Shown here piece by piece: positions 1 to 15,417 of a stretch of DNA of 15,417 nucleotides. The position numbers and the translations under genes were made by a program. The stretch covers positions 1 through 15,417 of the forward strand of contig CAZNTU010000130.1 of the NCBI GenBank assembly GCA_964575975.1, in the 5' to 3' direction. This stretch comes from an uncultured Desulfobacteraceae bacterium. Its GTDB lineage: Bacteria; Desulfobacterota; Desulfobacteria; Desulfobacterales; SKZT01. The notes under the pieces were generated by a model. It saw only the letters and a list, made by a program, of their open reading frames with translations. It was not told the origin of the DNA and searched no databases. Within the stretch, counting starts at the first letter, position 1. Each line of letters begins with the position of its first letter.

Positions 1-171
1 AGGGGGGTGTTGTTTCCGGTGAACAATGGATCGAACATGCCACACAGACACCCCCATAGCCCCCCTCAAGGGGGGAATTGCACCGCTCTCCAACCGCACG
101 GGTCGATAAATTCGGCATGTTACCCGTTAAGTTTACAATGTCAAAATAACCAATCTCCAATAACCAACAAC

Positions 172-966
172 CTACTTGAACAGCTTCATATCCTCCGCGA
201 TCCGATGGTAAGGCTCGGGGAACTCCGGCTGGAAATTCTGATAGAAGGTCACGGGATAGCGCGCGCCGATTTTTTTGCCGGCGTTCTTCAACCCGTTGTA
301 CAATAAAGGAAGGTCCTTTCCAGGGAGACTTAACACCATTTCGTCGTCCTGAGTCATGGAAAAGATTCTATCTCCCATGCCCGGCATGGAAATCCTGGGT
401 TCCCCGGTCTTATGCGGAGCAAGAAGATATTCGGTGCATTCCACCTTTCCCCCGAAATTGCCGGCGATCCGCTTTCCCGTTTCAAAGACCAGGGCTTGGA
501 CCATCCTCATGATTTGAGCCGGGTTTCCGTAGATCGCCACCGTATCCGGCTCGAACGCGTTTTTCATGAGAGGAGCCATCAGAATCGACCTTTCGGGATT
601 GTTTTCGAGGCGAATCATCGAACGGATTTCATCCTGGGCGTTCTCCTCCTTTTTCGCGAACTCGACTTCGCAAAAAAGGCCTCCCATGGTTTGCCCCGGA
701 TCGGGAGCGTCAGTAAACCCAAATGCGAGCATGGCGGGCAGGCAAATCAAATCCTCCCGAGTCAGTCCCACGGTCCAGCCGTAGACGCGGGCCATGGTTA
801 CCCCCTGGCAGATGGTCACGCGCTTTTTCAACACCGCCGAGGGTCTCCGGGTTTTATCCGGAAAAGAATCGGTCTTTTCCAGAATTTTCACCCCGATCAG
901 CAGGGTTTTCAACCTCAGATCCTCTCTAACGTAATTGGCCGCTTCCCTGTAATCCGTTTTTTCCAT
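172..966 (-). CDS. DUF169/COG2043-like protein of unknown function (264 aa). Start taken at the ATG at 964-966, not at the track's longer ORF start at 1197
   Basis: Long minus-strand ORF. The in-frame ATG at 966 has an AGGGAG Shine-Dalgarno about 7 nt upstream. The extension to 1197 would run through AT-rich, repeat-dense intergenic DNA. The family call comes from memory of sequence character only; no search was possible. Confidence 0.6.
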   Translation of the reverse strand: MEKTDYREAANYVREDLRLKTLLIGVKILEKTDSFPDKTRRPSAVLKKRVTICQGVTMARVYGWTVGLTREDLICLPAMLAFGFTDAPDPGQTMGGLFCEVEFAKKEENAQDEIRSMIRLENNPERSILMAPLMKNAFEPDTVAIYGNPAQIMRMVQALVFETGKRIAGNFGGKVECTEYLLAPHKTGEPRISMPGMGDRIFSMTQDDEMVLSLPGKDLPLLYNGLKNAGKKIGARYPVTFYQNFQPEFPEPYHRIAEDMKLFK

Positions 967-1000
967 GTCATGCTCCCTTGTCGGTTTGGATGAGTTTTTT

Positions 1001-1042
1001 AGCATGCTCTTTTCGGATTTTCGGACTTTCCCGAAAAATCCG
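1001..1042. promoter_or_regulatory. Cluster of dyad and direct repeats in the 5' region of the DUF169 gene: AGCATGCT palindrome (1001-1008), tandem TTTTCGGA x2 (1010-1025) and an inverted copy CCGAAAAATCCG (1031-1042)
   Basis: Read directly from the sequence. Sits 35-75 nt upstream of the minus-strand ATG at 966. Could be an operator, or a 5' UTR hairpin on the minus transcript (CGGATTTTTCGG ... CCGAAAATCCG). Confidence 0.3.
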
Positions 1043-1103
1043 TAGTTTTGTTCGAAGACGGGAGACACTTTTTGCGTTTCATAAATGCCCGTTTTCCTAG
1101 CCT

Positions 1104-1134
1104 TTGATTCCCAAAGTGAAGGTCTTGATTCCCA
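1104..1134. repeat. Direct repeat TTGATTCCCA x2 (1104-1113 and 1125-1134), 21 bp centre to centre
   Basis: Exact 10-mer seen twice. Two helical turns apart, in the divergent DUF169/PHP intergenic region. Confidence 0.5.
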
Positions 1135-1291
1135 CAATATTGTTCGTACTATTAATTTTCGTGCAATTTTCCACCTTATCCGTTGCGATCTTTTCAAGAT
1201 CCGATCGTAAAAACATGTTTCGATTCGCAGCTATTGCTGGGGAACCGAAACGAACAAAACTTAAATTCACGAAGCACGGGAGTCAAGAACT

Positions 1292-1951
1292 TTGATTATC
1301 GACATGCACAATCACACGAACATATCGTCCATATGCAGCGTTCTTCGTCCGGAAGAACTGATCGAGACGGCGAGGTCTCGGGGTTTGGATGGAATCTGTG
1401 TAACGGAGCACAATACCCTCCAGGGGGCCAATGTCGCAGCCGACCTCGGACGCAGGATGAAGTTCCCGGTTTTCAGAGGGCTGGAGGTCTCTACGGATGT
1501 TGGAGACATGCTGGTTTTCGGATACTACAAGGATATTCCCCAGGGGACGCCTTTGCCGGAATTGTGCAAAATCGTCCACGCTGAAGGAGGGGTTTTATTC
1601 GCAGCCCATCCCTTCTATCTGCGGGGAGGATGGAACCTTTATTCCGGGATGAAAAAAAAGATGCGCATCGATTTGGAAACCGGCTGGTGGAAGGCTGAAA
1701 TTCTCGGGCAATTGGACGGCATCGAAATCAGGAACGGCAATGTCGATCACGACAACAACCGGAAAGCCGAGGAATTGGCCGAAAGACTGCACATACCGGG
1801 CATAGGCGGAAGCGACGCCCACTCGGTGGACATGATCGCGAAAGCCGCGACGAAGTTCTCCAAGGACATTCATGACGAGGCGCAACTTGTCGCCGCGTTG
1901 AAATCCGGGGAATTCGAGGCTATGTATCTTCGCCGCGACACGATGCACTAG
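1292..1951 (+). CDS. PHP-domain metal-dependent phosphoesterase (219 aa)
   Basis: N-terminal DMHNHT motif, then VTEHN, AAHPF and GGSDAHS histidine/aspartate motifs typical of the PHP fold. TTG start at 1292 has GGGAG (1278-1282) 9 nt upstream. An alternative ATG lies at 1304. TAG stop at 1949-1951. Confidence 0.85.
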   Translation: MIIDMHNHTNISSICSVLRPEELIETARSRGLDGICVTEHNTLQGANVAADLGRRMKFPVFRGLEVSTDVGDMLVFGYYKDIPQGTPLPELCKIVHAEGGVLFAAHPFYLRGGWNLYSGMKKKMRIDLETGWWKAEILGQLDGIEIRNGNVDHDNNRKAEELAERLHIPGIGGSDAHSVDMIAKAATKFSKDIHDEAQLVAALKSGEFEAMYLRRDTMH

Positions 1952-2220
1952 CGCCCCTCGCTTGGCCGGCCGTTTTCAGCCGGAAAGCATAACCGGTCAA
2001 GCCCGCCGAAACTGCGGCGATCACGGCAATAAAGCCCAAAAACAACCAAACTTTGTTCTTCGCGTTGAAACATCAATCTCCGCTATAGCTCGTCCGTCGG
2101 GAAGCGCACGGCTAAAGCCGCAACTACAAACACGACGATTTCGTAATGGAAGCGTTTACGGTCAGGCCAAGAACGCGGCTTGCTTGGTCATGCATCCCGC
2201 AGCGCCTTGTTGCATTTGCA

Positions 2221-2249
2221 TGGCAAGTCCCTGAATAAACGGGTATAAT
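2221..2249 (+). promoter_or_regulatory. Candidate sigma70 promoter for the membrane-protein gene: perfect TATAAT at 2244-2249 with a weak TGGCAA -35 at 17 bp
   Basis: Hexamers seen in sequence. Downstream dyads GAAGATCTCC (2297-2306, 10-mer reading from 2296) and ATTGCGG-N16-CCGCAAT (2310-2339) could be operators. Confidence 0.3.
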
Positions 2250-2437
2250 AGGGTCTGTTCCGGTATATTCCGGCTATGGGACACGATCTTGATCGGAAGA
2301 TCTCCGGAGATTGCGGAAATTTTCCGAGAATACCGCAATGGGTTGTTGTCCCAAGTTGACGATGTCGAGCCACGATGCATAAGTTTCGACATAGGGTATA
2401 TGGACAAAGATCGAGAGGAACGAAAAAAGGATAAAAC

Positions 2438-3415
2438 ATGCAGAGATTGAATTTTTCGGATATTTTCCAAAGCAGAGACACTCACAAAAAAGTCATCAAG
2501 TTTGGTTTGGCGCTGTTTTTGGCGATGGAATTGTTCATTTACATCGGAGCTGCCAATCACACGGGAAAAGAGTCATGGGTGAACATTTACGATTCACAGG
2601 GCGAAAAAATCTACGAGACGCCCGGTACCGGTTTGACCAAATACGAAATCCACATTTTCGAAAGGTCGTTCGGTTCGCTGGAACAATATCGGATCCGAAC
2701 CGAAACCCGGAACAAGGAGTTTCCATTCAGGGCTTGGCTGGCCATTGCGGTGGGCGCTCCGATCGGACTTGCCCTTTTGATAATGTATTTGCTGCGCGCA
2801 TATTTGACATTTCTGGGAGACGATAAGACTCGGGACGGCGACTGGAACCCGACCGAAACAAACGGCCCCTCCCATCGAGCCGCCGCCAGATGGTTCGGTT
2901 GGAGCCGAATATCCATTTTTCACCTGGGGGGGTTTTTGATCGTATGCGTCCTGGCCGTATGGCTGGTCCCCGACTACATCGCCGACGCCGCCGGGGGATT
3001 GCTGGAGACGATCCTCCGATTCAAATGGTTCTTTCTAAGCATTTGCGCCTTCTTGGCTTCGCTGGTCGTATGGGTCATTTACTTGCGCTACCGAATGTCA
3101 CAGAGAATGATGGATCGCCAAATGGATCTGGAAAAGTTCCGAATGGAAAAACAGATGATGGTGGAAATGCAGAAGCTTCAGACAAGGGCATTGCCCCAGA
3201 CTACTGCGAGGGAATACGGCGAGCCGTTTAACAGCTCTGCAAACGACCTGTCTCAAAAAATAACGGACGGAATCCTTCCTGGAACCGTCGATGACAACAA
3301 TTCTACCGTTCGGGAAAATTCGGAAGAGAAAATGGAAACTGCCGAGGCGGAGGGTTTTGCGGACAATCCGGACAGAAACGGAATATGGCATTTCTTGAAA
3401 AGGAAATCGGGCTGA
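2438..3415 (+). CDS. Hypothetical integral membrane protein (325 aa). Four predicted TM helices, a roughly 60-aa extracytoplasmic loop, then a Met-rich coiled-coil segment and an acidic tail
   Basis: ATG at 2438 with AAGGA upstream. Hydrophobic stretches around residues 20-38, 100-120, 150-172 and 190-212. Segment RMSQRMMDRQMDLEKFRMEKQMMVEMQ holds 9 Met in 27 residues. Confidence 0.8.
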   Translation: MQRLNFSDIFQSRDTHKKVIKFGLALFLAMELFIYIGAANHTGKESWVNIYDSQGEKIYETPGTGLTKYEIHIFERSFGSLEQYRIRTETRNKEFPFRAWLAIAVGAPIGLALLIMYLLRAYLTFLGDDKTRDGDWNPTETNGPSHRAAARWFGWSRISIFHLGGFLIVCVLAVWLVPDYIADAAGGLLETILRFKWFFLSICAFLASLVVWVIYLRYRMSQRMMDRQMDLEKFRMEKQMMVEMQKLQTRALPQTTAREYGEPFNSSANDLSQKITDGILPGTVDDNNSTVRENSEEKMETAEAEGFADNPDRNGIWHFLKRKSG

Positions 3416-3469
3416 CATCGTTCATTTAAGTGAATCGATGCGTTGAAGCGCATATGCCTTGCAAACGCG

Positions 3470-3499
3470 CCCGTGAACCTAAACGGGTACGTTCACGGG
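3470..3499. terminator. Hairpin CCCGTGAAC-(12 nt loop)-GTTCACGGG between the convergent membrane-protein and MFS genes. No U-tract
   Basis: 9-bp perfect stem seen in sequence. It overlaps the MFS stop codon at 3493-3495. The absent T-run makes intrinsic-terminator function uncertain. Confidence 0.3.
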
Positions 3500-4655
3500 C
3501 AAAGCCGCCTCCATTTCTTCATTCCCCATACGAAAAATACCGCAGCCAAAACTCCGGAGACCGCCGAGACGACTGCCACGCCGGAAATTCCGAAAGCGGT
3601 CCACAAGGGCCCCCCGAACAGCGCTCCGGCCACTCTTCCCATTCCCGACGCCGCCAGGAAGCCGGACATCATGGTGGCTCTGCTTTGGGGAAGCAATTCG
3701 GTGCAGAGCGAGAGACTCGAAACAATTGTAAATTCGTATGTCAGAAAAATCAGGAAAATTACCGTCAGCGCGAAAGGCAAGTACGCGTCGCAGAACGGCA
3801 ATGGCAAATAGCAGCATGTGGACAAGACGGTTCCTGCCAAGACGGCTCGCTTCAGCCCGATCCTGTCCGATACGAAAGCGGTCAGAAACTCTCCGGACAA
3901 CTCTGCGGCGCCTATGACCGCAGCTCCGAAGCCCAGCGCGATCAGGCTCATGTCGAAGGTCTTTTCGAACCATGCTCCATAAATCACGAAAAGATTGTCG
4001 TTGGCAGCGCTGACAAAAAACGAGAATCCAAGCATACCTACGGAGGATTTTTTCCGGAACAATCCTTTCAACAATGCATGGCCCCCCCCCCCGACCGAGG
4101 AACTTTCTCCCGCGCCTTGTCTCCTCTGCACAACAACGTAAAAAGCAGAATGCCGACGAAGCCGAGCATGGCAATCGCAAAAAAAGGGGAACGCCATCCC
4201 CAGTTTTCCATCATTATTCCCACCAGGGGAATTCCCATCAACGCACTCCCGGCCCAACTTACCTCCAGAAGCCCGATTACCAAGCCACGACGTTCGAATG
4301 GGACTCTTCGTCCCACGTAAGCCTGCAAGGACGGGTCGAATACGTTTTTTCCAATCCCTGCGAGAGTAAGGCCCGCGAAGACGAAAGCGTAGACAGGAAA
4401 AAAGGCGGCGGCGATCATTCCGGTCGAGAGCAGGCAGAGTCCGGTCAGCATCATGACCCGGTAGCCCATGCGGTCGGCGACGGGGCCGAAAAAAATGGCG
4501 AAAACGCCGGTCGCTTGGTTTGCAGCGAGAATCGGTGTGACAGCGGTCAAGGGAACGTTCATTCCCCGACTCAGTTCGGGCGCGAACGGATAGGGAAAGC
4601 GCCTTGCGGTGTTCAACAGGAAACGGCATGAAACGACCAAGGCAAGTTTCAACAC
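3493..4655 (-). pseudogene. MFS-family transporter with its reading frame broken at a G11 (plus-strand C11) homopolymer at 4082-4092. The N-terminal half (frame of ORF 4068..4655) and C-terminal half (frame of ORF 3493..4659) are both intact
   Basis: The N-half carries MFS motif A (GPVADRMGYRVMM) after the first helix. The C-half is multi-TM. The two frames abut exactly at the homopolymer. One extra G (G12) would give ...KVPRSGGGGHALLKGLFRKK... continuously. GTG/TTG start at 4655/4652 with a weak RBS. Only 5 clear TMs in the N-half, so the N-terminus may also be degraded. Confidence 0.75.
4082..4092. repeat. C11 (minus-strand G11) homopolymer tract at the MFS frameshift site
   Basis: Counted directly: g at 4081, then 11 c at 4082-4092. 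Confidence 0.9.
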
Positions 4656-4677
4656 CCACAGGGACTTGGCGTTCGAA

Positions 4678-5934
4678 TCAGGAATCTTTCACCCTTTCGA
4701 TTTTGGCGTTCAAAGCGGCGAATTTCTTCTCGATGGATTCGTATCCCCGGTCTAGATGGTACACCCTATTGACGGTGGTTTCTCCTTTGGCGGCAAGTCC
4801 CGCCAGAATCAAGCTGGCGCTTGCCCTCAAGTCCGTCGCCATGACGGGTGCGCCGGTCAGCCTATCGACGCCCTTGACCATGGCCGTATTCCCGGAAATC
4901 TCGATGTCCGCGCCCATCCTTTGCAGTTCGCACACATGGATGAATCGGTTTTCGAAAATGTTTTCCGAAATGACGCTGGTGCCGTCGGCAAGGGTCATGA
5001 GCACCATGAACTGCGCTTGCATGTCCGTGGGATAGCCAGGATAAGGGAGCGTCTTCACGTTGGCGCTGGCGATTCTGTCCGCGCCTTGCACTCTAAGGCT
5101 CTTCCCGTTGACATCAATCAAAGCGCCGGTTTGTCTTAATTTGTTTATTACGGCCCCGAGATGGTCCGGTTCGCAACTTTCGATAAGCACGTCTCCCTTG
5201 GTCAGTGCTCCGGCGACCAGAAAGGTGCCGGTTTCGATTCTGTCCGGAATGATTTCAATTTCGGCGGGATGCAGCGATTCAACGCCCTTGATGGTTATCA
5301 CGGATGTTCCTGCGCCTTGGACGTTTGCACCCATTTTATTCAAGGCAACGCCCAATGCGGCGATCTCCGGCTCTCGCGCCACGTTTCGAAGCACCGTTTC
5401 CCCTTGTGCCAGCACGGCGGCCATCATCAGGTTCTCCGTACCGCCGACGGTTGGAACATCCAGATAGATGTCCGCTCCTTTCAGTTTTTCTGCGGAGGCC
5501 ACAACGTAACCGTGCTCGATCTCTATGGAGGCGCCCATTCGAGCGAGTCCCTTGAGATGCAGATTGATCGGACGCGCCCCGATGGCGCATCCTCCCGGAA
5601 GAGACACTCTTGCCTTTCCCAGTTGCGCCACGAGAGGTCCTAGAACCAGTATGGATGCCCTCATCTTTCTGACGAGGTCGTAAGGGGCAACAGAATTGTT
5701 CAGGCCGCCGGCGTCTATGGAAATCTCCGATTCGCTCGTTTCGACCTTGGCCCCCAAATGCGACAGCAAATCCTTGACGCTGTCGATGTCTTTCAGATTG
5801 GGAACGTTGGAATACGTGTTTTTCCCGTCCGTAAGAAGGGCCGACACCAGAATAGGAAGCGCCGCGTTTTTCGATCCGCTGATTTTCACCTCGCCCTTAA
5901 GAGGATGGCCGCCTTCGATGACAATTTTATCCAA
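4678..5934 (-). CDS. murA: UDP-N-acetylglucosamine 1-carboxyvinyltransferase MurA (418 aa), TTG start
   Basis: Collinear similarity to E. coli MurA from MDKIVIEGG... through ...[10 protein letters not shown]. Includes the active-site Cys in [11 protein letters not shown], so this is the fosfomycin-target type. The start codon at 5932-5934 is TTG, by alignment with the MDK N-terminus. Confidence 0.95.
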
Positions 5935-5949
5935 TCGATTATTTCCCTA

Positions 5950-5990
5950 AAAGCCAAAAAGCGCTCCCCCGCCGGGAGAGCGCTTTTCGT
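5950..5990 (-). terminator. Intrinsic terminator for the minus-strand respiratory operon: 11-bp stem (AGCGCUCUCCC/GGGGGAGCGCU with one G-U pair), GGCG loop, then UUUUUGGCUUUU
   Basis: Read from sequence. Lies immediately downstream of the small ORF stop at 6017 and about 25 nt upstream of the murA TTG start. An A-run on the other side makes it weakly bidirectional. Confidence 0.8.
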
Positions 5991-6016
5991 TTTAAAAGCT
6001 ATTTATGCAGTCCGGA

Positions 6017-6196
6017 TCAGTGATGCCCTTCGTGGCCGCCATGGCCGTGGCTTCCCTGGCCTTTCACGGTATCGTATACGGTTTTCAGAACGACGAACGT
6101 CATTCCCGCGCCCAATATCGACAGAGCGTACCATAAACCGCCGTGAAAGACGAAGTGGCTCATATCCCAAATCCATTCAAAGGAAAACGGAAACAT
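6017..6196 (-). CDS. Unannotated small membrane protein (59 aa): MFPFSFEWIWDMSHFVFHGGLWYALSILGAGMTFVVLKTVYDTVKGQGSHGHGGHEGHH. Single TM helix plus a His-rich C-terminal tail
   Basis: Below the size cutoff of the ORF track. ATG at 6194-6196 (minus) has AAGGAGGG 7 nt upstream and lies only 18 nt after the qrcD stop. Stop TGA at 6017-6019. The terminator follows directly. Translated by hand from the sequence. Confidence 0.55.
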   Translation of the reverse strand: MFPFSFEWIWDMSHFVFHGGLWYALSILGAGMTFVVLKTVYDTVKGQGSHGHGGHEGHH

Positions 6197-6214
6197 ATTC
6201 TATCCCTCCTTCAA

Positions 6215-7540
6215 TCAGGCTGTTTTGGCTATAGCGGTCGGAGCAAAATCTCCGGCCGGCTCTTGCTCTGCTTCCTCCGCCTTTTCGGTCGCGGCGCCAG
6301 GCAAAGGATTCAATTCCTTTTCCTGGGGGAATACGGGCAGGTAGCGGTAGGACAGGGAAATCAGGATTATGCCGTAGGCTACCGGCAGAATGGTGGTCGC
6401 GATCTCCTGCCAGCTGGGGAAGTAGGTGAACCAGCTTTCGAACGGCATGACGGGAACGGCCAGCACTTGCAGGACCATGACCCAACGATTGACGCTAACG
6501 CCGACGCAAGCCAAAGTGACCGCGATCCAGAGGGCGACCTTGTTCTGCCTTCCGGCCTTGGTCACCAGGATCAGCGCGGGAACCACGCCGCCGAGCACCA
6601 CTTCGAGGAACAGAATCCAATAACCGTACGCCGAACCGGGATTGTTGGTGTAGAAGTCGGCCAGTGTGAATCCCATGGCGGGAGCCGTGTTGATCGCCCA
6701 GTAGACGGTATCGACGATCTTCGCCACGATGTAGGTCAAAAGCATCCAACCGGCGATCTTGGCCAACAGCTCAATCACGTTGTCCTTTACCAGCTTTTTG
6801 CCCGTGGCGACTTCCGTGATCTTCGTCACCAAGATTGTGAAGCACGGACCGCAGGCGGCGGCTGACCAAGTGAAGAGAAAGAAAGTCCAAGGCCAGATCA
6901 GAACGCCTTCGCGAAATCCGAAGGGCCGTCCGAAAAGCACGCCGGCGACGCCGCCCAGGGAGCCTTGATGGAAAAAGGACAGGAAGGCGCCGGTTGCGGC
7001 GAAGACGGCCATGAACTCGTGCATGTTGTGGCTTAAATTGTGGAAAAACGGGACTTTGTCGATCTGGCGGTTTTCCAGGACGAGAGGAATGTACTCTATG
7101 GTCAGAACCGCGAAGTAGCAGGACAGACAGAACGCCACTTCGGTAAGCATGGAGTGTACGTTCGCATGCCAGAAGATAAACCATCCTCTGAGCGGCTGAC
7201 CGATGTCGATCGCCAGAATCAGCAAGGCGGAACTGTAGCATATAAAGCCGATCAGAACCGCGTAGTTGATGATGTTCTTAAGTTCCTTCAGGTTGAAGAT
7301 GTAGCGTAAAAGCCCTGAGAAGAACGCGCCGCCGCCCAACGCGATCACCGCGAGGTCGGCCCAAATCCACAGGGCGAATCCGTACGCGTCGTTCATGTTG
7401 GTCTGGTTCAATCCTTTTACCCAACAAAGGATCATGGCGTAAACGCCAATGGCCAGAACCACGCCGACAGCGCCGATCCACAAGACAAACTTTCCGAGTG
7501 AACAGCGTTGGACACCCTCGGGAATTAATTCGGAATCCAT
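6215..7540 (-). CDS. qrcD: NrfD/PsrC-family polytopic membrane subunit (441 aa), QrcD-like quinone-interacting subunit
   Basis: About 10 hydrophobic helices. Size fits QrcD/ActC rather than the 8-TM PsrC. AGGAG RBS upstream of the ATG at 7540. Last gene of the cytochrome / Mo-family / Fe-S / NrfD module. Confidence 0.85.
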   Translation of the reverse strand: MDSELIPEGVQRCSLGKFVLWIGAVGVVLAIGVYAMILCWVKGLNQTNMNDAYGFALWIWADLAVIALGGGAFFSGLLRYIFNLKELKNIINYAVLIGFICYSSALLILAIDIGQPLRGWFIFWHANVHSMLTEVAFCLSCYFAVLTIEYIPLVLENRQIDKVPFFHNLSHNMHEFMAVFAATGAFLSFFHQGSLGGVAGVLFGRPFGFREGVLIWPWTFFLFTWSAAACGPCFTILVTKITEVATGKKLVKDNVIELLAKIAGWMLLTYIVAKIVDTVYWAINTAPAMGFTLADFYTNNPGSAYGYWILFLEVVLGGVVPALILVTKAGRQNKVALWIAVTLACVGVSVNRWVMVLQVLAVPVMPFESWFTYFPSWQEIATTILPVAYGIILISLSYRYLPVFPQEKELNPLPGAATEKAEEAEQEPAGDFAPTAIAKTA

Positions 7541-7612
7541 AAGGTATGCGCTCCTAAATGTTTAAACGGTTTCTATCACCACTGTTATTGCCTGAATATT
7601 GCAAAACCCCGA

Positions 7613-8428
7613 TCACTTATGGCCTCCGGCGGTTTTGGCGGCCTTGGCCACTTCCTTGGTTTCGCTTTCCAAGTAGTTGTCGCCCGACCTGCGGACCCAT
7701 TCCCTGGAGGAGACGTAATAAACTTTCGGATTGGTGTGAAGTCTTTCCAGGAGCCTGAACGCGTTGGGATTTTGTTTGAGTTCGTAAACCGCGTGCTTTG
7801 GATTGTCCAAGTCTCCGAACGTGATCGCGTCGACAGGACAGGCCTGGGCGCATGCGGTCTGATATTCATGCTCTTCCAGTTCCTTTCTTCCCTCGTAGAT
7901 GGCCTTGTCCATGGCCAACTGGTAGCGGTGGAAACAGAAACTGCATTTTTCGACGATACCGCGCATACGAACGGAAACGTTGGGGCTGAGATATTTTTCC
8001 ATTCCCTTGGGCCAGACCGGGTCCCACCAGTTGAAGTACCGGACATGGTAAGGACAGGCGGCCATGCAGTATCGGCACCCGAAACATCTCGTGTAAATCT
8101 GGCTGACAATGCCGGTTTCCATGCTGTAGTCGGTGGCGGTCGCGGGGCAGACCGAAACGCAGGGCGAATGCCCGTGCTCCCCGACGCCCGAACAATGCTG
8201 GCACGGTCTCGGAAGGTAGCAAATGTCCGTGTCCGGATAAGATTTGCCGTTGGTCAGCTTGTAAACCCGGAGCCACGTGATGCTCCGAATCTTATCCGTT
8301 TCGTCTTTCTTGAAAGGCACGTTGTTCTCCTGCATGCAAGCCACCATGCAGGCGCCGCACCCGGTGCATTTGTCCAGGTCGATGACCATACCGTATTTTT
8401 TGGCGTGTGTATTGTGTCCTTTTTCCAT
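7613..8428 (-). CDS. qrcC: Four-cluster [4Fe-4S] ferredoxin-type subunit (271 aa), QrcC/PsrB-like. No signal peptide
   Basis: Four Cys motifs: CTGCGACMVAC, CQHC-x10-C-x3-CP, CFGCRYCMAACP and CSFC...CAQACP. No N-terminal signal, consistent with Tat hitchhiking on the large subunit. Confidence 0.9.
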   Translation of the reverse strand: MEKGHNTHAKKYGMVIDLDKCTGCGACMVACMQENNVPFKKDETDKIRSITWLRVYKLTNGKSYPDTDICYLPRPCQHCSGVGEHGHSPCVSVCPATATDYSMETGIVSQIYTRCFGCRYCMAACPYHVRYFNWWDPVWPKGMEKYLSPNVSVRMRGIVEKCSFCFHRYQLAMDKAIYEGRKELEEHEYQTACAQACPVDAITFGDLDNPKHAVYELKQNPNAFRLLERLHTNPKVYYVSSREWVRRSGDNYLESETKEVAKAAKTAGGHK

Positions 8429-8452
8429 CAGAACCTCATATAGATTTTCAAT

Positions 8453-8520
8453 CTTTCAGCTGTCGGCCTTCAGCTTGCTCCGAATCGCGCGACGCGAAAA
8501 ACCAGGCCGTAAGCTGAAAG
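8453..8520. repeat. Imperfect 16-nt inverted repeat CTTTCAGCTGTCGGCC (8453-8468) / GGCCGTAAGCTGAAAG (8505-8520), 14 of 16 complementary, with 36-nt spacer. A nested TCGCG-CGA-CGCGA mini-hairpin sits at 8485-8497
   Basis: Seen in the 112-nt qrcB-qrcC intergenic region. Would form a long-range stem-loop in the polycistronic mRNA. Confidence 0.5.
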
Positions 8521-8540
8521 CTAAAATTATTTTGAAAAGC

Positions 8541-10775
8541 TTAGGCTTTGGTCAATTTCGCCCGGATTCCCCATGCCGCGTTCAATCCCGTGAGCGGATC
8601 CTCGACAACCTTAAGCAACTGGTTGGCGTTGAGGCCCTTGCCCCGTCCCATGTACTCGTCAAAGGCGGTGTGGCCCAATCCGGTGGGAATCGCGATCACG
8701 CCCGGCAGGATACCGTCGAACAAGGTCACCTTCACTTTCGCCGTGCCGGCCGCCGTTTGCAATTCGGCGTAGTCGCCTTCTTCCAAACCGGCTTTCTCCG
8801 CCGTCTTCGGATTCATCTCCACCACCACGTCATTATGGAACAAGACTTCGTTGGGGACTGTCTTGAGCATGAAAGGCGTCGTAGCCGCGTACCCTTTCGA
8901 GCGTCTCATGGAATCGTATGGAATAAGCGTGTAGTTTCCGGCTTCCATTTCGATCCCAAGGCTCTCGAAGTGCGGCAACCCTCTATTGTTCTCCTGGGGG
9001 TTCTTCACCGCAGTCGCCAAAAACTCGAACTTTTTCGAACTCGTCTCGAAGTTCCAAGGGTTGGGGACGACTTCGTCGCTTACCGCGACGACATCCTTCA
9101 GCAACGCGTCCCATTTGTCGCCGAGGGTTTCCTTCAAACAGGTCTCATAGTCGCACCAAGGGAACGCCTCGGATACCGAGCCGCCGAGTTTCTTCGCGAT
9201 CCCCAAAATGGCGTCGCCGGTATGCATGGTGTTCAGCTGAGGCTTGACCACCGGTTTGGCAAGCGCGAGAACCGGTTTTTTCAAACCCGCCGCGATCGGA
9301 ACGTCTTCGTAGCGCTCCAGGTAGACATGGTTGGGAAGGATCAGATCGGAAAACGCGGCCGTTTCGTCCATGAAGGAGGAGAAGCTTGCGACGAAGGGGA
9401 TTTGGGAGAAGGCTTTTTTAACGGCGTCCGTGTCGTTCATGGTGTAGAGAGGATTGGCGTTGGCGATCAGAAGCGCCTTGACGTCGTACTTTTCGCCGGC
9501 GTTGAGGATTTTGGGGAAGCGTTCCAGAAGGCTCTCTGCGCACAGCCACTCGTCGGACCCGGCGCCGTCAATCCGTCCTTTTTGAAGTCCTGCGGAAGCG
9601 ATCTCGTCGGCTCGAACCTCCGGCCATGCGATATAATCGAATTTCGGAAGGGACCATACGCCGCCTTCGGAATTGATGTTTCCGACGAGCGCGTTCAACG
9701 CCTGAACTGCCATGACTTCGTGAACGGAACCGGGAATGTCGCCCTTTCCTCTTCCGCATACGGCCAACGGTTTCTTGGCCTCGGCGAACTCGAGGGCCAA
9801 TTCCACGATGGTTTCCTCGCCGATCCCGGTGATCTCCGCGACCTCGCCCGGGCTGTAGTCGTTGGTCACGAGGTTCTTGAACTCCTTGAAACCGCTCGAT
9901 CCCGTATCGACAAAGTTCTTGAGGTACTTTTTCTGACGTACGATCACATGGGCGATGCCCATGGCCAAAGCGGCCTCCGTGCCGGGATTGATCGGAATCC
10001 ATTTGTCCATCTTTGCCGCAGTGGTAGAAAGGCGCGGTTCGATCTGGATCACCTTGCCCCTTTCGCGAATCCCGTTGATCGCCTGGAACATGCGGATGGG
10101 AGAACCCCATCCCTCGATCAACCCGCTGCCGAAACTCAAGAGGTAGTCGGTGTTTTCAAAGTCGAACCCGACCGGTCCCTCCGAGCCTTGCATCAGTTTG
10201 GCGGCGGTCCGGTACGTATCGAAGACGGTGGCGGGGGTCATGAAGTTCGAAGAGCCGTAAGCCGTCGTGAATCTTTTCAAGAGAGCGCCCACGGTGCCTT
10301 TGTCGTCCCCCGAAATCGCGGCCACCTTTTCCGGCTCGCCGGCGGCCCTGATCTCGGCCAGCTTCTCCGAAACGATGTCGATCGCCTCGTCCCAGGAAAT
10401 TTTCTGCCACTTGCCCTCGCCCCTTTCGCCGATTCTCTTCATGGGGGAAGGAACCCTGAAGGGACCGTAAAGATATTGAAGGCCGGAGGCGCCGAGGATG
10501 CAAATGCCGCCGTCGTTGACAGGGCTTCCTTCGGTCCCCTCGATCTTGATCGCCCTGTTGTCCACTTTCCGGACGGAAATGCCGCAACCGCCGGGGCAGA
10601 GCGTGCATACGGTATTTTCGTACGCGTATTGTCCATCGGGGGGAACCGGCGTCCATGGCCACATTTGAGTCCAAATTGACAAATCGTCCGTCAGTTTCCA
10701 GGGCAGCGGCGTAAGGTTAATCCCCGCAGCGGCCCCGACGGCGAGTGATAAGAAACATCTTCTGCTAAGTTTCAT
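8541..10775 (-). CDS. qrcB: Molybdopterin-oxidoreductase-family large subunit (744 aa precursor) with twin-arginine signal, QrcB-like. Start moved to the ATG at 10773-10775
   Basis: MKLSRRCFLSLAVGAAAG... gives a Tat motif SRRCFL. GAGGT SD lies 7 nt upstream of this ATG, and the track start at 10838 has no SD. N-terminal CTLCPGGC...C four-Cys cluster motif. Length and domain order match molybdopterin-family enzymes. Confidence 0.9.
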   Translation of the reverse strand: MKLSRRCFLSLAVGAAAGINLTPLPWKLTDDLSIWTQMWPWTPVPPDGQYAYENTVCTLCPGGCGISVRKVDNRAIKIEGTEGSPVNDGGICILGASGLQYLYGPFRVPSPMKRIGERGEGKWQKISWDEAIDIVSEKLAEIRAAGEPEKVAAISGDDKGTVGALLKRFTTAYGSSNFMTPATVFDTYRTAAKLMQGSEGPVGFDFENTDYLLSFGSGLIEGWGSPIRMFQAINGIRERGKVIQIEPRLSTTAAKMDKWIPINPGTEAALAMGIAHVIVRQKKYLKNFVDTGSSGFKEFKNLVTNDYSPGEVAEITGIGEETIVELALEFAEAKKPLAVCGRGKGDIPGSVHEVMAVQALNALVGNINSEGGVWSLPKFDYIAWPEVRADEIASAGLQKGRIDGAGSDEWLCAESLLERFPKILNAGEKYDVKALLIANANPLYTMNDTDAVKKAFSQIPFVASFSSFMDETAAFSDLILPNHVYLERYEDVPIAAGLKKPVLALAKPVVKPQLNTMHTGDAILGIAKKLGGSVSEAFPWCDYETCLKETLGDKWDALLKDVVAVSDEVVPNPWNFETSSKKFEFLATAVKNPQENNRGLPHFESLGIEMEAGNYTLIPYDSMRRSKGYAATTPFMLKTVPNEVLFHNDVVVEMNPKTAEKAGLEEGDYAELQTAAGTAKVKVTLFDGILPGVIAIPTGLGHTAFDEYMGRGKGLNANQLLKVVEDPLTGLNAAWGIRAKLTKA

Positions 10776-10859
10776 GGATTTTACCTCGTTATGTGAAAAT
10801 GCGAGCAATATTATTCTTGTTTTTTTTCGAGTCCGCAACAGAATGATATTTCATAGCTC

Positions 10860-11549
10860 TTACTTGTGGCAAACGAAGCAGGCGCCTTTTTCCGTCTGGA
10901 CGCTGCTTTGATTGACGTTGTTCTCCTGGTGGCATTCCGAGCAATCGTCCATCTTCATCCGGTCCCACGTGTTTTTCTTGAGCCCGGCGATGTTTTTGCC
11001 CCAAATGTTCCGGCTGTAGCCGGAAATTCTATTGTATTCGTAGATCGGCAAAGTTGTGGACCCCCCGATGTCGCCGTGGCAGGTCCGGCAATTCATTTCG
11101 CCGGATATCACGTGGGCCGCGTGCGAGAAGAACACGCAATCGGGTTGCCTGGAATAAACGAGCCATGGAACCTCCAGGCCGTTCGCGACATATTGCTCCA
11201 CGAAAATGGCTTCGTCCTCGCTCCCCCCTTGCACCTCGTAGTGGCAGTCCACGCACTGGGCAAGCTTGGGAGCGCCGGAAAACGTACCGTCTTCACGGAA
11301 GAAATGGCAGCTCTGGCAACCGTTGTCCACCATCTCGTTGTGAAGCTGGTGGTTAAAATCGAACGGCTGCTTCTTCTGCGAATAGAGGACTTTGGGAAAC
11401 CCAATCCATCCTACCAAAAGGCTCGCAACCAATCCGACAACGAAGAAAATGAAGACGATCCCAATGGTGTTTTTCTTCCCGGAAGCCTCGGCGCTTTCAT
11501 CGGCCGCTTCCGCTGAAGCCTCTTTGGCCTTTTCCTCTGATGTGCTCAT
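10860..11549 (-). CDS. qrcA: Membrane-anchored pentaheme cytochrome c (229 aa), QrcA/ActA-like
   Basis: Five CxxCH motifs (CQSCH, CVDCH, CRTCH, CSECH, CFVCH). N-terminal acidic tail, then one TM helix IGIVFIFFVVGLVASLLVGWIGF. GGAG SD 6 nt upstream of the ATG at 11549. Confidence 0.88.
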   Translation of the reverse strand: MSTSEEKAKEASAEAADESAEASGKKNTIGIVFIFFVVGLVASLLVGWIGFPKVLYSQKKQPFDFNHQLHNEMVDNGCQSCHFFREDGTFSGAPKLAQCVDCHYEVQGGSEDEAIFVEQYVANGLEVPWLVYSRQPDCVFFSHAAHVISGEMNCRTCHGDIGGSTTLPIYEYNRISGYSRNIWGKNIAGLKKNTWDRMKMDDCSECHQENNVNQSSVQTEKGACFVCHK

Positions 11550-11575
11550 GGAATCTCCGTCAAAAAGTGGTTTAA

Positions 11576-11616
11576 ATTTTCACAAAAGAACCCAAACAGA
11601 CCTTGAAAAAATTCAA
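11576..11616 (-). promoter_or_regulatory. Candidate class II CRP/FNR-family-dependent promoter for qrcA. TTGAA-N4-TTCAA dyad (11603-11616) is centred about 40.5 bp upstream of a predicted TSS. Extended -10 TGTGAAAAT (minus strand, 11584-11576)
   Basis: Dyad core TTGA-N6-TCAA matches 8 of 10 positions of the FNR box. The TG-n-GAAAAT spacing is exact for an extended -10. Predicted 5' UTR is about 20 nt. All positions hand-derived; no experimental support. Confidence 0.4.
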
Positions 11617-11796
11617 CGCCGGTTCCGTCGCCTTTTTCGAAATCGTATGGCCTGTACAATGAAAAAGCGCCGAATCGGGCGTTTCCGAACTTGAAAAGAA
11701 ACTATTTCCATAGGGTCGGGCGCCCGCCCCGAACAAACGGGACTGAAAATAATTTGAGTCTGTTTATCTATAGTTATCTGTTTTGTCAAGAAAAAA

Positions 11797-12639
11797 TCAT
11801 TGACCCATGCTGCCGTAACTGTGCAAGCCCGGCAAAAGATTCACGCCGAAATACGTGAAAAGGACCGCGGCGAAACCCGCCACCGACAGCCATGCGATTC
11901 TCTTCCCTCGCCACCCGCGCATCATCCTGGCATGGATCAGCGTCGAATAGATAAACCACGTGATCAGAGACCATGTTTCCTTCGGGTCCCATCCCCAATA
12001 GCGGCCCCACGCGCTGTTGGCCCAGACCGCCCCCGTTATGATGCCCGCCGTGAGAAACAAAAACCCGAACATCACGAGCTGGTAAATCAACTCGTCCAAA
12101 ATCGACGAGTCCGGAAGCCGACCGAGGAGACTGCTTTCGCTCCGGGCGCGTTTCTTCAGGATGTACATGACGGCGATTCCGAAGGCGACCGCGAAAGCCG
12201 CGTAGCCGACAAAGCACGTGATCACGTGGGCGATCAGCCAGTTGCTTTTCAAAGCCGGGACCAACGGCTGTATACGGTCGCTGATGTTCGGGGAAAGGCT
12301 CGCGTAGGCCAGGGCCAGGAAAGCCAAAGGCGCGGTGAACGCACCGATGACCCGGTTCTTGTACTTCATTTCGAGAACCAGGTAGACCGCTATGATGGTC
12401 ATCGAAAAAAAGACCAGGGATTCGTAAAGGTTGGACAAAGGCGCGTGACCGAAACCCATTTGGTAGGATTCGATCCATCGCAGCGCGATTCCGGCCAGGT
12501 TTCCGAAAAGTCCGGCCAAGGCGACCCATGTGGCCGCCTTGGCCGGACTTTCTTTCTTGAAAACCCACGAAAAAACATACAGAAACGCCGACAATCCATA
12601 AACGAACGTAGTGACGGACAATATGCTGGAACTGTTCAT
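11797..12639 (-). CDS. ccsA: Cytochrome c biogenesis protein CcsA/ResC (system II heme-handling protein, 280 aa)
   Basis: Polytopic membrane protein with the tryptophan-rich WWD motif WGRYWGWDPKETW and conserved flanking His residues. GAGAGG SD upstream of the ATG at 12639. Confidence 0.9.
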   Translation of the reverse strand: MNSSSILSVTTFVYGLSAFLYVFSWVFKKESPAKAATWVALAGLFGNLAGIALRWIESYQMGFGHAPLSNLYESLVFFSMTIIAVYLVLEMKYKNRVIGAFTAPLAFLALAYASLSPNISDRIQPLVPALKSNWLIAHVITCFVGYAAFAVAFGIAVMYILKKRARSESSLLGRLPDSSILDELIYQLVMFGFLFLTAGIITGAVWANSAWGRYWGWDPKETWSLITWFIYSTLIHARMMRGWRGKRIAWLSVAGFAAVLFTYFGVNLLPGLHSYGSMGQ

Positions 12640-12682
12640 TCAAACCTCTCGATTCAATAATATAAAAGGTGCGGGGGCGGGA

Positions 12683-14059
12683 TTATTCCATCGCCCGCAA
12701 TTGCTCCAAAATACTTTTCACCTTTTGCGCCATCCCGAGTTTGTTCTTGTTCGAAGAACCGGCGACCGTCACGCGGCATCCGTTGCCGGTCCGGACAGCC
12801 TCCACGAACAGGCGCTGGTGGGATATGAAAAAAGTGACGAAACATCCGGCGATCATCACGACAAAGCCGAGATATACAAGGGGGACGCCAGGATCGTACG
12901 TGACCTGAAGACCCGTATAGAATTTCTCGTCGTATTTTTCCACCGCGATCACGAACTCGCCTTTTCGCATGCGGTCGAAATTGGGAAAGCGAAGAGGCAA
13001 TACGATCTCGACCGGCTCCTTGTCCTTGAGGTTCAATGTTCCGATGAACGCCTGGCCGATAGAATGTCCCCGGAACTGCGCGTTGTCGCTGAAGCTTTGC
13101 AGCACGAATGTACCCTTGCCGTCAGGAAGATCGATCGTTTGGCCGACCTTCGCCTTTTTCATGATATTGAACCCGAACTCCTCTTCCCTAGTGGCGATGC
13201 TCAAGGTGACCGTGTCCGAGGGGACGGACCCGTAGCTAGACTGGAAAATATTGATGCCCTCGTATCTCAGAGGATCGTTAACGATGATGTCCTTTTTCAG
13301 AACTTCCTTGCCGTTCTCCAGTATCGTCAGCGAGCTTCGGTATTCCTTGGGGGTGCCGGACTCGTAGAAGCTGACGTCGAAATCGTCGCACCGAATCGCG
13401 AAATCGAGGGCTTGAATCGCGGGTTTGTTTCGCAGGCGGATGCTGTCGACGGTCTCGCCCTCGGGGATGTTGACGAATCCCTCGAATCCCATGATGGAGC
13501 CGATCAGACCGCCCAGCAGCAAAAAAATTATGCTCAGATGGACGATATAAGCCCCCAACCGGGTCCAACGTCCCTTTTCAGCTAAAAAGACCCACCCATT
13601 GTCGGTCTCTTCGACGCGGCAATAACCGAATTTCCTGCGAAGGAAAGGTTCGTACAGTTTGCGCAAGTCCTGGGCCGACCGGTCTCTTTCAAACTCCTCC
13701 TTGTCGGAATCGCCTCTGAAGCGTCCCGGATTGAAGGAGGGCTCTTTCACGAAAACCACCTTCCAAGCGGTCGGAAGCCTGTCCAGGGAACACACGACCA
13801 CGTTGGCCGTCAAGACGATCAGGACAAGCTGAAACCACCACGAATGGTACATGTCGAACAGATCCAGGAACGAAAACAGCGCGTAGAGCTTCGGGCCGTA
13901 GGCTTGCATATAGGCTGCGGGGCTTTCGTTCTGGGGGATGACGGTACCTATTATGGAAGTGGCCGCCAAGGTCAACAATACCGCGACCGTAAGCTTTACG
14001 GACGCGAAAAACCTCCACACCCCGCCAAGGGGGGTCGGAGAGGTATCGCTTCGTTCCAT
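12683..14059 (-). CDS. ccsB: Cytochrome c biogenesis protein CcsB/ResB (458 aa). Start taken at ATG 14057-14059 (MERSDTS...), not the track ATG at 14098
   Basis: N-terminal TM helix after WRFFASVKLTVAVLL, a large soluble middle domain, and a C-terminal TM pair (VYLGFVVMIAGCFVTFFISH), which is the typical ResB architecture. AAAGGA SD 8 nt upstream of the 14059 ATG. Nothing SD-like before 14098. Confidence 0.85.
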   Translation of the reverse strand: MERSDTSPTPLGGVWRFFASVKLTVAVLLTLAATSIIGTVIPQNESPAAYMQAYGPKLYALFSFLDLFDMYHSWWFQLVLIVLTANVVVCSLDRLPTAWKVVFVKEPSFNPGRFRGDSDKEEFERDRSAQDLRKLYEPFLRRKFGYCRVEETDNGWVFLAEKGRWTRLGAYIVHLSIIFLLLGGLIGSIMGFEGFVNIPEGETVDSIRLRNKPAIQALDFAIRCDDFDVSFYESGTPKEYRSSLTILENGKEVLKKDIIVNDPLRYEGINIFQSSYGSVPSDTVTLSIATREEEFGFNIMKKAKVGQTIDLPDGKGTFVLQSFSDNAQFRGHSIGQAFIGTLNLKDKEPVEIVLPLRFPNFDRMRKGEFVIAVEKYDEKFYTGLQVTYDPGVPLVYLGFVVMIAGCFVTFFISHQRLFVEAVRTGNGCRVTVAGSSNKNKLGMAQKVKSILEQLRAME

Positions 14060-14599
14060 CAATAATTCCTTTCCGATTCTATCCGGACTCGATCCCATAA
14101 TCGACGTCTCGTCAAAATGCCGTTTCGTGCAATCCGCGCGGGCGCGCCGGTTCGCGGCTCTCCTTCAAATCGACGAACGAGCATAATATTCATCCTCCCG
14201 GGACTTTTCCAGGTCTAACGCGAATTTTAGTGTCGGGTTTTCCCGTAGCCGCATTGGCTGGAAAATCGTTGCGGAAACATGTTTCATACTTTTCGGCTCG
14301 AGGCACCTACCCGACTCGATCATTGTTGGCGGCGCCCCGATGCAATAGGAGGTTATAACAAAACGGCAATATGGAAGCAACACAAAGAAAAAAACTGGAT
14401 TTGTTTAAAAATCGGCGGATTCGGAACTTGCAGGCAAGTACCGTGCTGTGGAAACGCGATTCTTGACAATTCCGGTTTCCGTATAAGGTTTTGATGTAAC
14501 GAGGCCGATCGAAAATGAAAACAACGATATGAAAGCGCGCGCCGAATTGGAAAAATGGACGGGCGGCAACCTTTTTATTCATGCCGCATTAAGCGAGGC

Positions 14600-14628
14600 T
14601 TAACTATATTATAAAACTATATTATAAA
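14600..14628 (+). promoter_or_regulatory. Candidate sigma70 promoter for the small Cys-rich ORF: TTAACT (14600-14605), 17 bp spacer, TATAAA (14623-14628)
   Basis: Hexamers and spacing read from sequence. Embedded in the tandem 13-bp repeat. Predicted 5' UTR about 115 nt. Confidence 0.3.
14602..14627. repeat. Perfect tandem direct repeat AACTATATTATAA x2, followed by AGGTG-N5-AGGTG
   Basis: Exact 13-mer at 14602-14614 and 14615-14627. AT-rich island inside a GC-richer genome. Confidence 0.9.
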
Positions 14629-14749
14629 GGTGATAAAAGGTGTGCAGAATCCGGACTCGGACACTCGTCCGCGCTGGCGTGGCGCGAAACGGCCTATCGA
14701 CAAACGAAAATCGGAAACGGGAAGCGTACCGGCTCCCCAAGGAGGAAAT

Positions 14750-14920
14750 ATGGCAAAATCTTCAAACGCTCGCAAGTGTTGTTCGATGGAAAAGGAACAC
14801 CTGATGGAGGAACTTAGAAAATGCGACATGAGTTCCTCCAATTACGACGAATTTCACCAGTGCTACCGGGATGCCGCAAGAGAAAGCGGCCTGCGCGCCA
14901 GATCGTGCGTCACCGAATAG
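14750..14920 (+). CDS. Small Cys-rich hypothetical protein (56 aa): MAKSSNARKCCSMEKEHLMEELRKCDMSSSNYDEFHQCYRDAARESGLRARSCVTE
   Basis: ATG at 14750 with AGGAGG 5 nt upstream (14741-14746). TAG stop at 14918-14920, followed 20 nt later by a strong terminator. Five Cys including a CC pair. The longer track ORF from 14630 lacks an RBS. Confidence 0.55.
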   Translation: MAKSSNARKCCSMEKEHLMEELRKCDMSSSNYDEFHQCYRDAARESGLRARSCVTE

Positions 14921-14939
14921 AACGGCGCGACAAGCGCCC

Positions 14940-14974
14940 AAAAAGCCGCAGGGGATATCCCCTGCGGCTTTTTT
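14940..14974. terminator. Bidirectional rho-independent terminator: perfect 24-nt palindrome GCCGCAGGGGATATCCCCTGCGGC flanked by A5 and T6
   Basis: 10-bp GC-rich stem with ATAT loop. T6 on the plus side and T5 on the minus side. Sits between the convergent Cys-rich ORF and the encapsulin gene. Confidence 0.88.
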
Positions 14975-15007
14975 AATTCAAGAGGTATGGAAGGTTTTTG
15001 CCGAAGT

Positions 15008-15417
15008 TTATCTTTTTATGCTCATTTTAACGAATACCGAGTCGTCGAGGATGCGGAACGTAAACGATTCGGTCAGGTAAAGCGAGACGGTGTCCTTGTC
15101 GTGCTGGGCGTAGCCGATCATATAATCCTGCCCCAAAATCAGCTCCAAATCTCCGCCGCGCATGGAAACCAGAAAGGCGTCCCGAATTTCCGAAGCGTAC
15201 AAGATCGGACCCCCTAAAAGATTTTCGATATGCCGTCGCAAAGGATAACCGTTCAAATGCCTTGAGAGAGTTCGCCATTCCGCCGGATTTACCACAAGCG
15301 CGTACGGTCCCTCTACCGAGGCTTCCAGCAGGGTGGTTATCCCTGTCGAAACGGCCTCCAGGATCTCGGGAATTTGGTCGGAAAACTCCAGAAAGTGCCG
15401 GGACGCTTCGTACATCC
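15008..15417 (-). CDS. Family-1 encapsulin (linocin M18-type) nanocompartment shell protein. Only the C-terminal ~135 residues are in the window; the 5' end lies beyond the window edge
   Basis: The C-terminus ...VEGPYALVVNPAEW...GYPL...LVSMRGGDLELILGQDYMIGYAQHDKDTVSLYLTESFTFRILDDSVFV aligns residue-for-residue in character with the T. maritima encapsulin C-terminus (GPYTLVINTDRW...GHYPL...[50 protein letters not shown]). The M at 15415 is internal. Confidence 0.88.
   Translation of the reverse strand, partial: MYEASRHFLEFSDQIPEILEAVSTGITTLLEASVEGPYALVVNPAEWRTLSRHLNGYPLRRHIENLLGGPILYASEIRDAFLVSMRGGDLELILGQDYMIGYAQHDKDTVSLYLTESFTFRILDDSVFVKMSIKR

Follow-up and report, generated by a model that had tools for sequence, protein, structure and literature searches.

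The MFS_1 transporter gene at positions 3493-4655 (minus strand) of the window, i.e., the whole 15,417-bp stretch of DNA analysed in this study, switches frame at a run of 11 G. This split is probably not a fixed lesion. The evidence favors an intact gene for a 12-helix MFS transporter with an unstable poly-G run in its central cytoplasmic loop, the length of this run being left unsettled by reads of mixed length. In that case, the G11 of the window would be the gap-resolved version of the run, one base short of an in-frame G12. The poly-G run itself is real and comprises at least 11 bases, as it was seen joined to both of its flanks. Its exact length is fixed only to about one base by the public data. 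Since one base separates an intact from a split gene, the split cannot be trusted as a property of the organism.

Frames of the split gene and its neighborhood

The features of the transporter gene are listed below.

4082-4092, minus strand: poly-G run, G11 on the coding strand and C11 on the plus strand
Either side of the G run: flanks …GAAAGTTCCTCGGTC and CCATGCATTGTTGAAAGG…
4068-4655, minus strand: N-terminal half (TM1-6), reading through the run to the stop TGA (4070-4068) four codons later
3493-4092, minus strand: C-terminal half (TM7-12), its frame opening with a codon at the first G of the run and ending with the stop at 3495-3493
4069-4074, minus strand: TTG TTG in the frame of the C-terminal half, the second TTG (4071-4069) overlapping the TGA of the N-terminal half (TTGA)
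3493-4659 (388 aa) and 3479-4180 (233 aa), minus strand: shadow ORFs in the stop-free -1 frame of the transporter gene

The N-terminal ORF (4655 to 4068) opens with VLKLALVV and closes with ...KVPRSGGGAMHC and the stop (…EKVPRSGGGAMHC). The C-terminal half is translated from the other frame as GGGGHALLKGLF... down to the stop at 3493. Addition of one G results in an ORF of 1164 nt without internal stop and a product of 387 aa. In this G12-repaired frame, the run encodes the glycines of ...PRS-GGGG-H... and the sequence …KVPRSGGGGHALLKGLF… is restored. Two codons are candidates for the start of the gene, GTG 4655, which is GCG in the closest orthologue, and the next codon TTG 4652, which is conserved and is the called start in the orthologue. 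Judged from this conservation, TTG 4652 is probably the true start. The public gene call includes a C-terminal product of 192 aa that starts at the TTG TTG (4069-4074). In the G11 state, the G run lies 7-10 nt upstream of the TTGA overlap, a spacing at which it may resemble a Shine-Dalgarno element, and the overlap may be a re-initiation site. A scan of the gene for promoters and terminators returned chance-level matches only.

The shadow ORFs of 388 and 233 aa were rejected as real overlapping genes, being Arg-rich translations out of frame that result from the lack of stops in the -1 frame of the transporter gene. Specifically, this frame contains 0 stops in 387 codons, compared to 8.3 expected from codon shuffles (P about 0.0002), 2 in the orthologue, and 3-12 in the other genes of the window. 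This is probably due to the codon and dicodon bias typical of a gene for a membrane protein and not to a second gene.

The G11 run was the sole G/C run longer than 7 in the 15.4-kb window. Runs of 2 to 7 bases were counted 1420, 290, 61, 19, 8, and 1 times, respectively, so that each added base reduced the number about four- to five-fold. Dinucleotide-preserving shuffles of the window gave an expectation of 0.02 G11 runs per window, and at least one such run occurred in 3 of 200 shuffles. As GGG makes up only 20% of the Gly codons in the neighboring genes, the run is not a by-product of codon usage.

The original prediction had described a transporter split exactly at a G11 run in its central loop, with both halves intact in different frames and joined into one ORF by G12, and had called runs of this length rare. 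Each of these points was borne out, the C11 lying at 4082-4092 and the position of the junction in the loop following from the alignment and the structural model described below. It had also seen no other frameshift in the window, and this holds: murA, qrcA-D, resB, PHP, and the DUF169 gene cover their models or match the public gene calls.

Upstream of the transporter gene lie the following features. The qrc genes were assigned by profile search and gene call.

4678-5934, minus strand: murA, 22 nt upstream of the transporter gene and on the same strand, a pair conserved in a relative
6017-6196, minus strand: ORF of 59 aa between qrcD and murA
6215-7540, minus strand: qrcD
7613-8428, minus strand: qrcC
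8541-10775 (as called), minus strand: qrcB
10860-11549, minus strand: qrcA

The order from qrcB to the transporter gene is kept in the 80%-identical relative GCA_036681025.1 (positions 1-7146 of locus L001), qrcA falling outside the fetched part. A respiratory Qrc operon directly upstream of murA and a transporter (4678-11549) is an unusual neighborhood. Convergent with the transporter gene is an ORF of 325 aa (2438-3415, plus strand) that has no match in Pfam or NCBIfam and is called in all public copies. Farther along, the DUF169 ORF (172-1197, minus strand) comprises 341 aa from its first TTG and 264 aa in the public call (172-966), with the Pfam domain at residues 91-299; its upstream 77 codons are probably untranslated.

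Public assemblies at the poly-G run

The window is the reverse complement of the SPAdes scaffold ERZ22278262 NODE_3946_length_15417_cov_6.85, which was located in ENA via a MurA look-up. Exactly 15 positions distinguish the fetched ENA record from the window.

4082-4096, no strand: scaffold-gap bases, CCCCCCCCCCCGACC in the window and AA plus 13 N in the fetched ENA copy

In the sister assembly ERZ17914141, the same region is divided over two contigs. NODE_5801 (11321 bp) corresponds to window 4097-15417, its last bases being …GTTCCTC, and NODE_19218 (4083 bp) corresponds to window 1-4083 apart from a terminal AA in place of CC. Given that 11321 + 13 + 4083 = 15417, SPAdes joined these two contigs into the scaffold of 15417 bp, with the poly-G run lying in the 13-N gap between them. 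Two public versions of one 15417-bp sequence thus differ at 4082-4096. The G11 version is attested by a protein of 164 aa (P0121), which ends with ...RSGGGAMHC, is located on the 15417-bp contig, and has NCBI as its only source; the C-terminal product and MurA, in contrast, are listed for both NCBI and ENA. The filling of the gap in the G11 version left the length of the record unchanged. The size of the gap (13 N and two junk bases) fits GGTC plus G11 exactly.

The names of the contigs and their coverage tags (6.3-7.1) are in the style of SPAdes and look like a low-coverage short-read assembly. They do not agree with the long-read, 454, or Ion Torrent platforms that had been suggested as the source of an assembly error. 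The suspicion of an assembly problem at this site was itself justified, as the 13-N gap in the ENA scaffold, the two sister contigs, and the Logan contigs all coincide with the run.

The Logan contigs of SRR5581382 (L005 and L012) are 100% identical to the window. L005 equals window 4082-9038 and ends with …CTCGGTC and 11 G; L012 equals window 125-4092 and ends with the same 11 bases. Their overlap consists of the run alone instead of k-1 = 30 bases, and merging them on the run reproduces the window. Both SPAdes assemblies and Logan hence fail at the run and are identical elsewhere, and all three appear to derive from one read set.

Logan uses a graph with k = 31, drops k-mers seen once, and reports simplified contigs (PMC12424806). 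Neighboring contigs in such a graph have 30 bases in common, and at about 10x a uniform G11 should not interrupt the path. A bubble of G11 and G12, however, would end both flanking contigs after exactly 11 G, and this is what both ends display. The two alleles would share the 20 left-flank bases with G11, as well as G11 with the 20 right-flank bases, and would differ only in between; the two branches of 49-50 nt would be too short to be reported by Logan. By this graph logic, which concerns topology and not a count of reads, the contig ends fit reads of mixed run length, namely G11 plus G12 or longer. Similar contig ends could also arise from a dead end where reads fail just past the run.

Two other origins of the break were rejected. 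The run is not a 3' poly-G tail of two-colour chemistry, because it is also attached to the right flank as G11+CCATGC, which is impossible for tails from dark cycles. Nor does the gap hide further sequence such as an insertion element, as the protein alignment continues over the junction with a length difference of 1 residue to the orthologue.

Integrity of the transporter and origin of the run

Apart from the run, the transporter gene is well preserved. The G12-repaired protein matches Pfam MFS_1 with 152 bits (cut-off 33.4, E = 2.6e-44) over residues 9-323 and could be aligned, with 99% of its length covered, to more than 100 full-length homologues. These originate mostly from Desulfobacterales or Thermodesulfobacteriota MAGs and share about 58% identity, the closest (P0001) sharing 80%. 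No NCBIfam model reaches its cut-off, and the best remain far below (e.g., TIGR00880 with 52.6 bits compared to 131); the name DHA1 was seen only as a JGI source name on homologues. MFS motif A between TM2 and TM3 reads GPVADRMGYR (residues 57-66), with the invariant G57, D61, R62, and G64 kept. Similarly, its counterpart in the C-domain, SDRIGLKR, retains D264 R265 x G267 x K269 R270, and all invariant columns of the family alignment are kept in the repaired protein. The short N-terminus is shared with P0001, and the DNA upstream of it is conserved too.

An AlphaFold2 model of the repaired protein (pLDDT 83, pTM 0.86) predicts the two-domain helical MFS fold, and a Foldseek search with this model gave a TM-score of 0.84 over about 390 columns to solved MFS structures. 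The glycine run is placed in the variable loop 177-191, which connects the two six-helix domains, is predicted to be unstructured, and has the lowest pLDDT.

No second lesion, i.e., no other stop or indel, was found in the transporter gene. Compared with the 80%-identical orthologue (L001), the half upstream of the run had a dN/dS of 0.17 and the downstream half one of 0.13, murA giving 0.08; a very recent frameshift would escape this pairwise measure. These values show purifying selection on both sides of the run, and no sign of decay is seen. The decay that had been offered as one explanation of the split is therefore disfavored, with low dN/dS on both sides, both copies of motif A intact, and a short N-terminus common to an intact orthologue.

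At the site of the run, the orthologue (80% amino acid identity) reads TCTGGCGGTTTC, or more fully CCCTCTGGCGGTTTC, which encodes P-S-G-G-F and contains no homopolymer. Likewise, no G/C run of at least 8 bases was found at this site in the other, more distant loci that were fetched, so that the comparison of tract lengths with relatives, proposed originally, met loci without a run. The run is therefore young and arose in this lineage, inside a loop that contains glycines.

Searches for further copies were made in several collections. A scan of JGI metagenomes with both flanks and a variable gap gave no match, and the left flank alone gave one unrelated chance match (L009). GTDB representative genomes contained only relatives from Syntrophales (46-48% identity). 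A search with the N-terminal half found no near-identical protein except P0121, which comes from the same contig. No publication on SRR5581382 turned up in the literature. According to JGI metagenome, GTDB, and protein searches, the organism is found in one data set only, and an in-frame length of the run is absent from all public records found.

Explanations of the split and comparison with known systems

An intact gene with an unstable run can be reconciled with the G11 of the window in more than one way. The single likeliest case, with a probability somewhat short of one half, is an in-frame run (most simply G12) for which G11 is an artefact of PCR or sequencing stutter or of gap filling. 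PCR stutter is biased toward contraction, which makes a true G12 with G11 as the artefact likelier than the reverse. Spurious indels in homopolymers are also described for Illumina data (PMC8808543). A sampled population that holds several run lengths through slipped-strand mispairing is somewhat less probable, and more exotic rescues deserve very little weight. A few observations point weakly in the other direction, to G11 as a real and perhaps the major allele: the version sourced from NCBI reads G11, the gap fits this length exactly, and the ends of the Logan contigs allow no length shorter than 11. None of the public records found contains the in-frame run.

If slippage is real, G12 or G9 would yield the full transporter with four or three glycines in a tolerant loop, and G11 would yield TM1-6 plus four residues, AMHC. 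With G10 or G13, translation would continue from TM1-6 into a nonsense tail of roughly 200 residues, which is this long because the -1 frame has no stop. Should a mixture of lengths prove biological, it would add a modest example of a hypermutable run from environmental anaerobes, organisms in which phase variation is hardly documented.

Adaptive phase variation goes one step further and assumes a selected run that switches by slipped-strand mispairing at high frequency between ON (G12 or G9) and OFF (G11 or G10), the window representing an OFF line. We consider this unlikely. G/C tracts dominate among strong candidates for phase variation, and tracts of at least 8 bases are usually variable (PMC5084427). 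A run of 11-12 bases within an ORF is far above this length, so that slipped-strand mispairing would toggle the frame in any bacterium, and the view that this locus could behave like a contingency locus, with a G/C run of at least 8 in an ORF and slips that change the frame, is well founded on its sequence. The run is also improbable both by chance and by codon usage, it lies in a tolerant loop where in-frame changes of length would be harmless, the rest of the gene is intact, and the ends of the Logan contigs fit a mixture of lengths. On the other hand, the run is not conserved in the closest orthologue or in more distant loci, and with no second G/C run longer than 7 in 15 kb, nothing hints at a set of such loci across the genome. 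The organism is represented in a single data set, and technical stutter accounts for the same graph signature. An inner-membrane MFS transporter beside murA is not known as a typical phase-variable class. Of the phase variation proposed in the original prediction, what stands is a run suited to slippage; an in-frame length in any record and a run in the closest relative are both missing.

That an environmental, sulfate-reducer-like anaerobe employs this newly evolved run, located in the loop between the two domains of an MFS transporter linked to murA, as a genuine ON/OFF switch is doubtful, as is the variant in which the OFF state would still give a working split transporter through a restart at TTGA. 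If such a switch were true, contingency loci would extend to free-living anaerobes and to inner-membrane transporters.

A fixed and very recent frameshift, with G11 in all cells, a transporter that is a young pseudogene or dispensable, and purely technical breaks in the assemblies, is improbable as well. It would agree with the sole base-resolved version of the run (the window and P0121), with the length of the gap, and with the expectation that a hypermutable run is the likely site of a first inactivating hit in a gene. However, a second lesion is lacking, dN/dS downstream of the run is as low as upstream, and the invariant residues and the N-terminus are kept. Moreover, a uniform G11 at about 10x should have been crossed in the k = 31 graph, yet both Logan contigs stop, and the contraction bias of PCR stutter favors a true G12. 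As all assemblies fail at the run and no decay is visible, a fixed pseudogene is the least likely of the three options first offered, which were phase variation, decay, and assembly error.

In 1990, Bibi and Kaback reportedly found that halves of lactose permease split in the central loop complement each other, which makes a split transporter conceivable. A real G11 in a gene that works nonetheless, either by re-initiation at TTGA and assembly of the two MFS halves or by slippage of RNA polymerase or the ribosome that restores the frame, would suit the stop/start overlap with its spacing and the break exactly between two 6-helix domains but is very improbable, as the overlap may be due to chance, the intact orthologue has no such arrangement, and insertions by transcriptional slippage prevail in A and T runs, not in G (PMC5574713).

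For the preferred explanation, an intact gene with an unstable run, the practical consequence is one of caution: the frameshift resembles a biological switch but coincides exactly with a scaffold gap, and annotating the contig as an MFS pseudogene or as phase-variable would over-read short-read data of about 10x.

Among known transporters, the predicted structure resembles the DHA1-like MFS proteins (VMAT1/2, SotB, NorA, EmrD, and OxlT), with TM-scores of 0.84 to VMAT1 and 0.73-0.77 to SotB. Sequence identity to the solved DHA1-like structures is only 13-21%, and no NCBIfam model at its cut-off supports a closer assignment.

The poly-G/C loci of Neisseria, Haemophilus, and Campylobacter share with this gene a G run in an ORF, one-base slips that toggle between a full-length and a truncated product, and a region tolerant of the number of glycines. 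In contrast to those loci, which carry their runs near the 5' end, the run described here lies in the middle of the gene and is not kept in the nearest relative, and its putative mixture of lengths was deduced from contig ends instead of being seen directly. Whereas those systems belong to host-adapted pathogens, the host of this gene appears to be environmental and sulfate-reducer-like, judging from its qrcABCD genes and its homologues in Desulfobacterales MAGs. The reversible homopolymer frameshifts of Mycobacterium tuberculosis, such as that in the 7C tract of glpK, likewise affect a gene for something other than an outer-surface antigen and show that homopolymer switches extend beyond the classical surface antigens (10.1101/717272, PMC10334774). 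Those cases comprise many isolates and experiments, compared to a single low-coverage metagenome contig here.

The homopolymer errors of Illumina de Bruijn assemblies are reported to be worst for runs longer than 14 bases, compared to 11-12 bases here (PMC8808543). They share with the present case a one-base change in a long G/C run, low coverage, and contigs of three assemblies that stop at the run, and frameshifts in homopolymers where low-coverage metagenome assemblies have a gap are a well-known kind of case.
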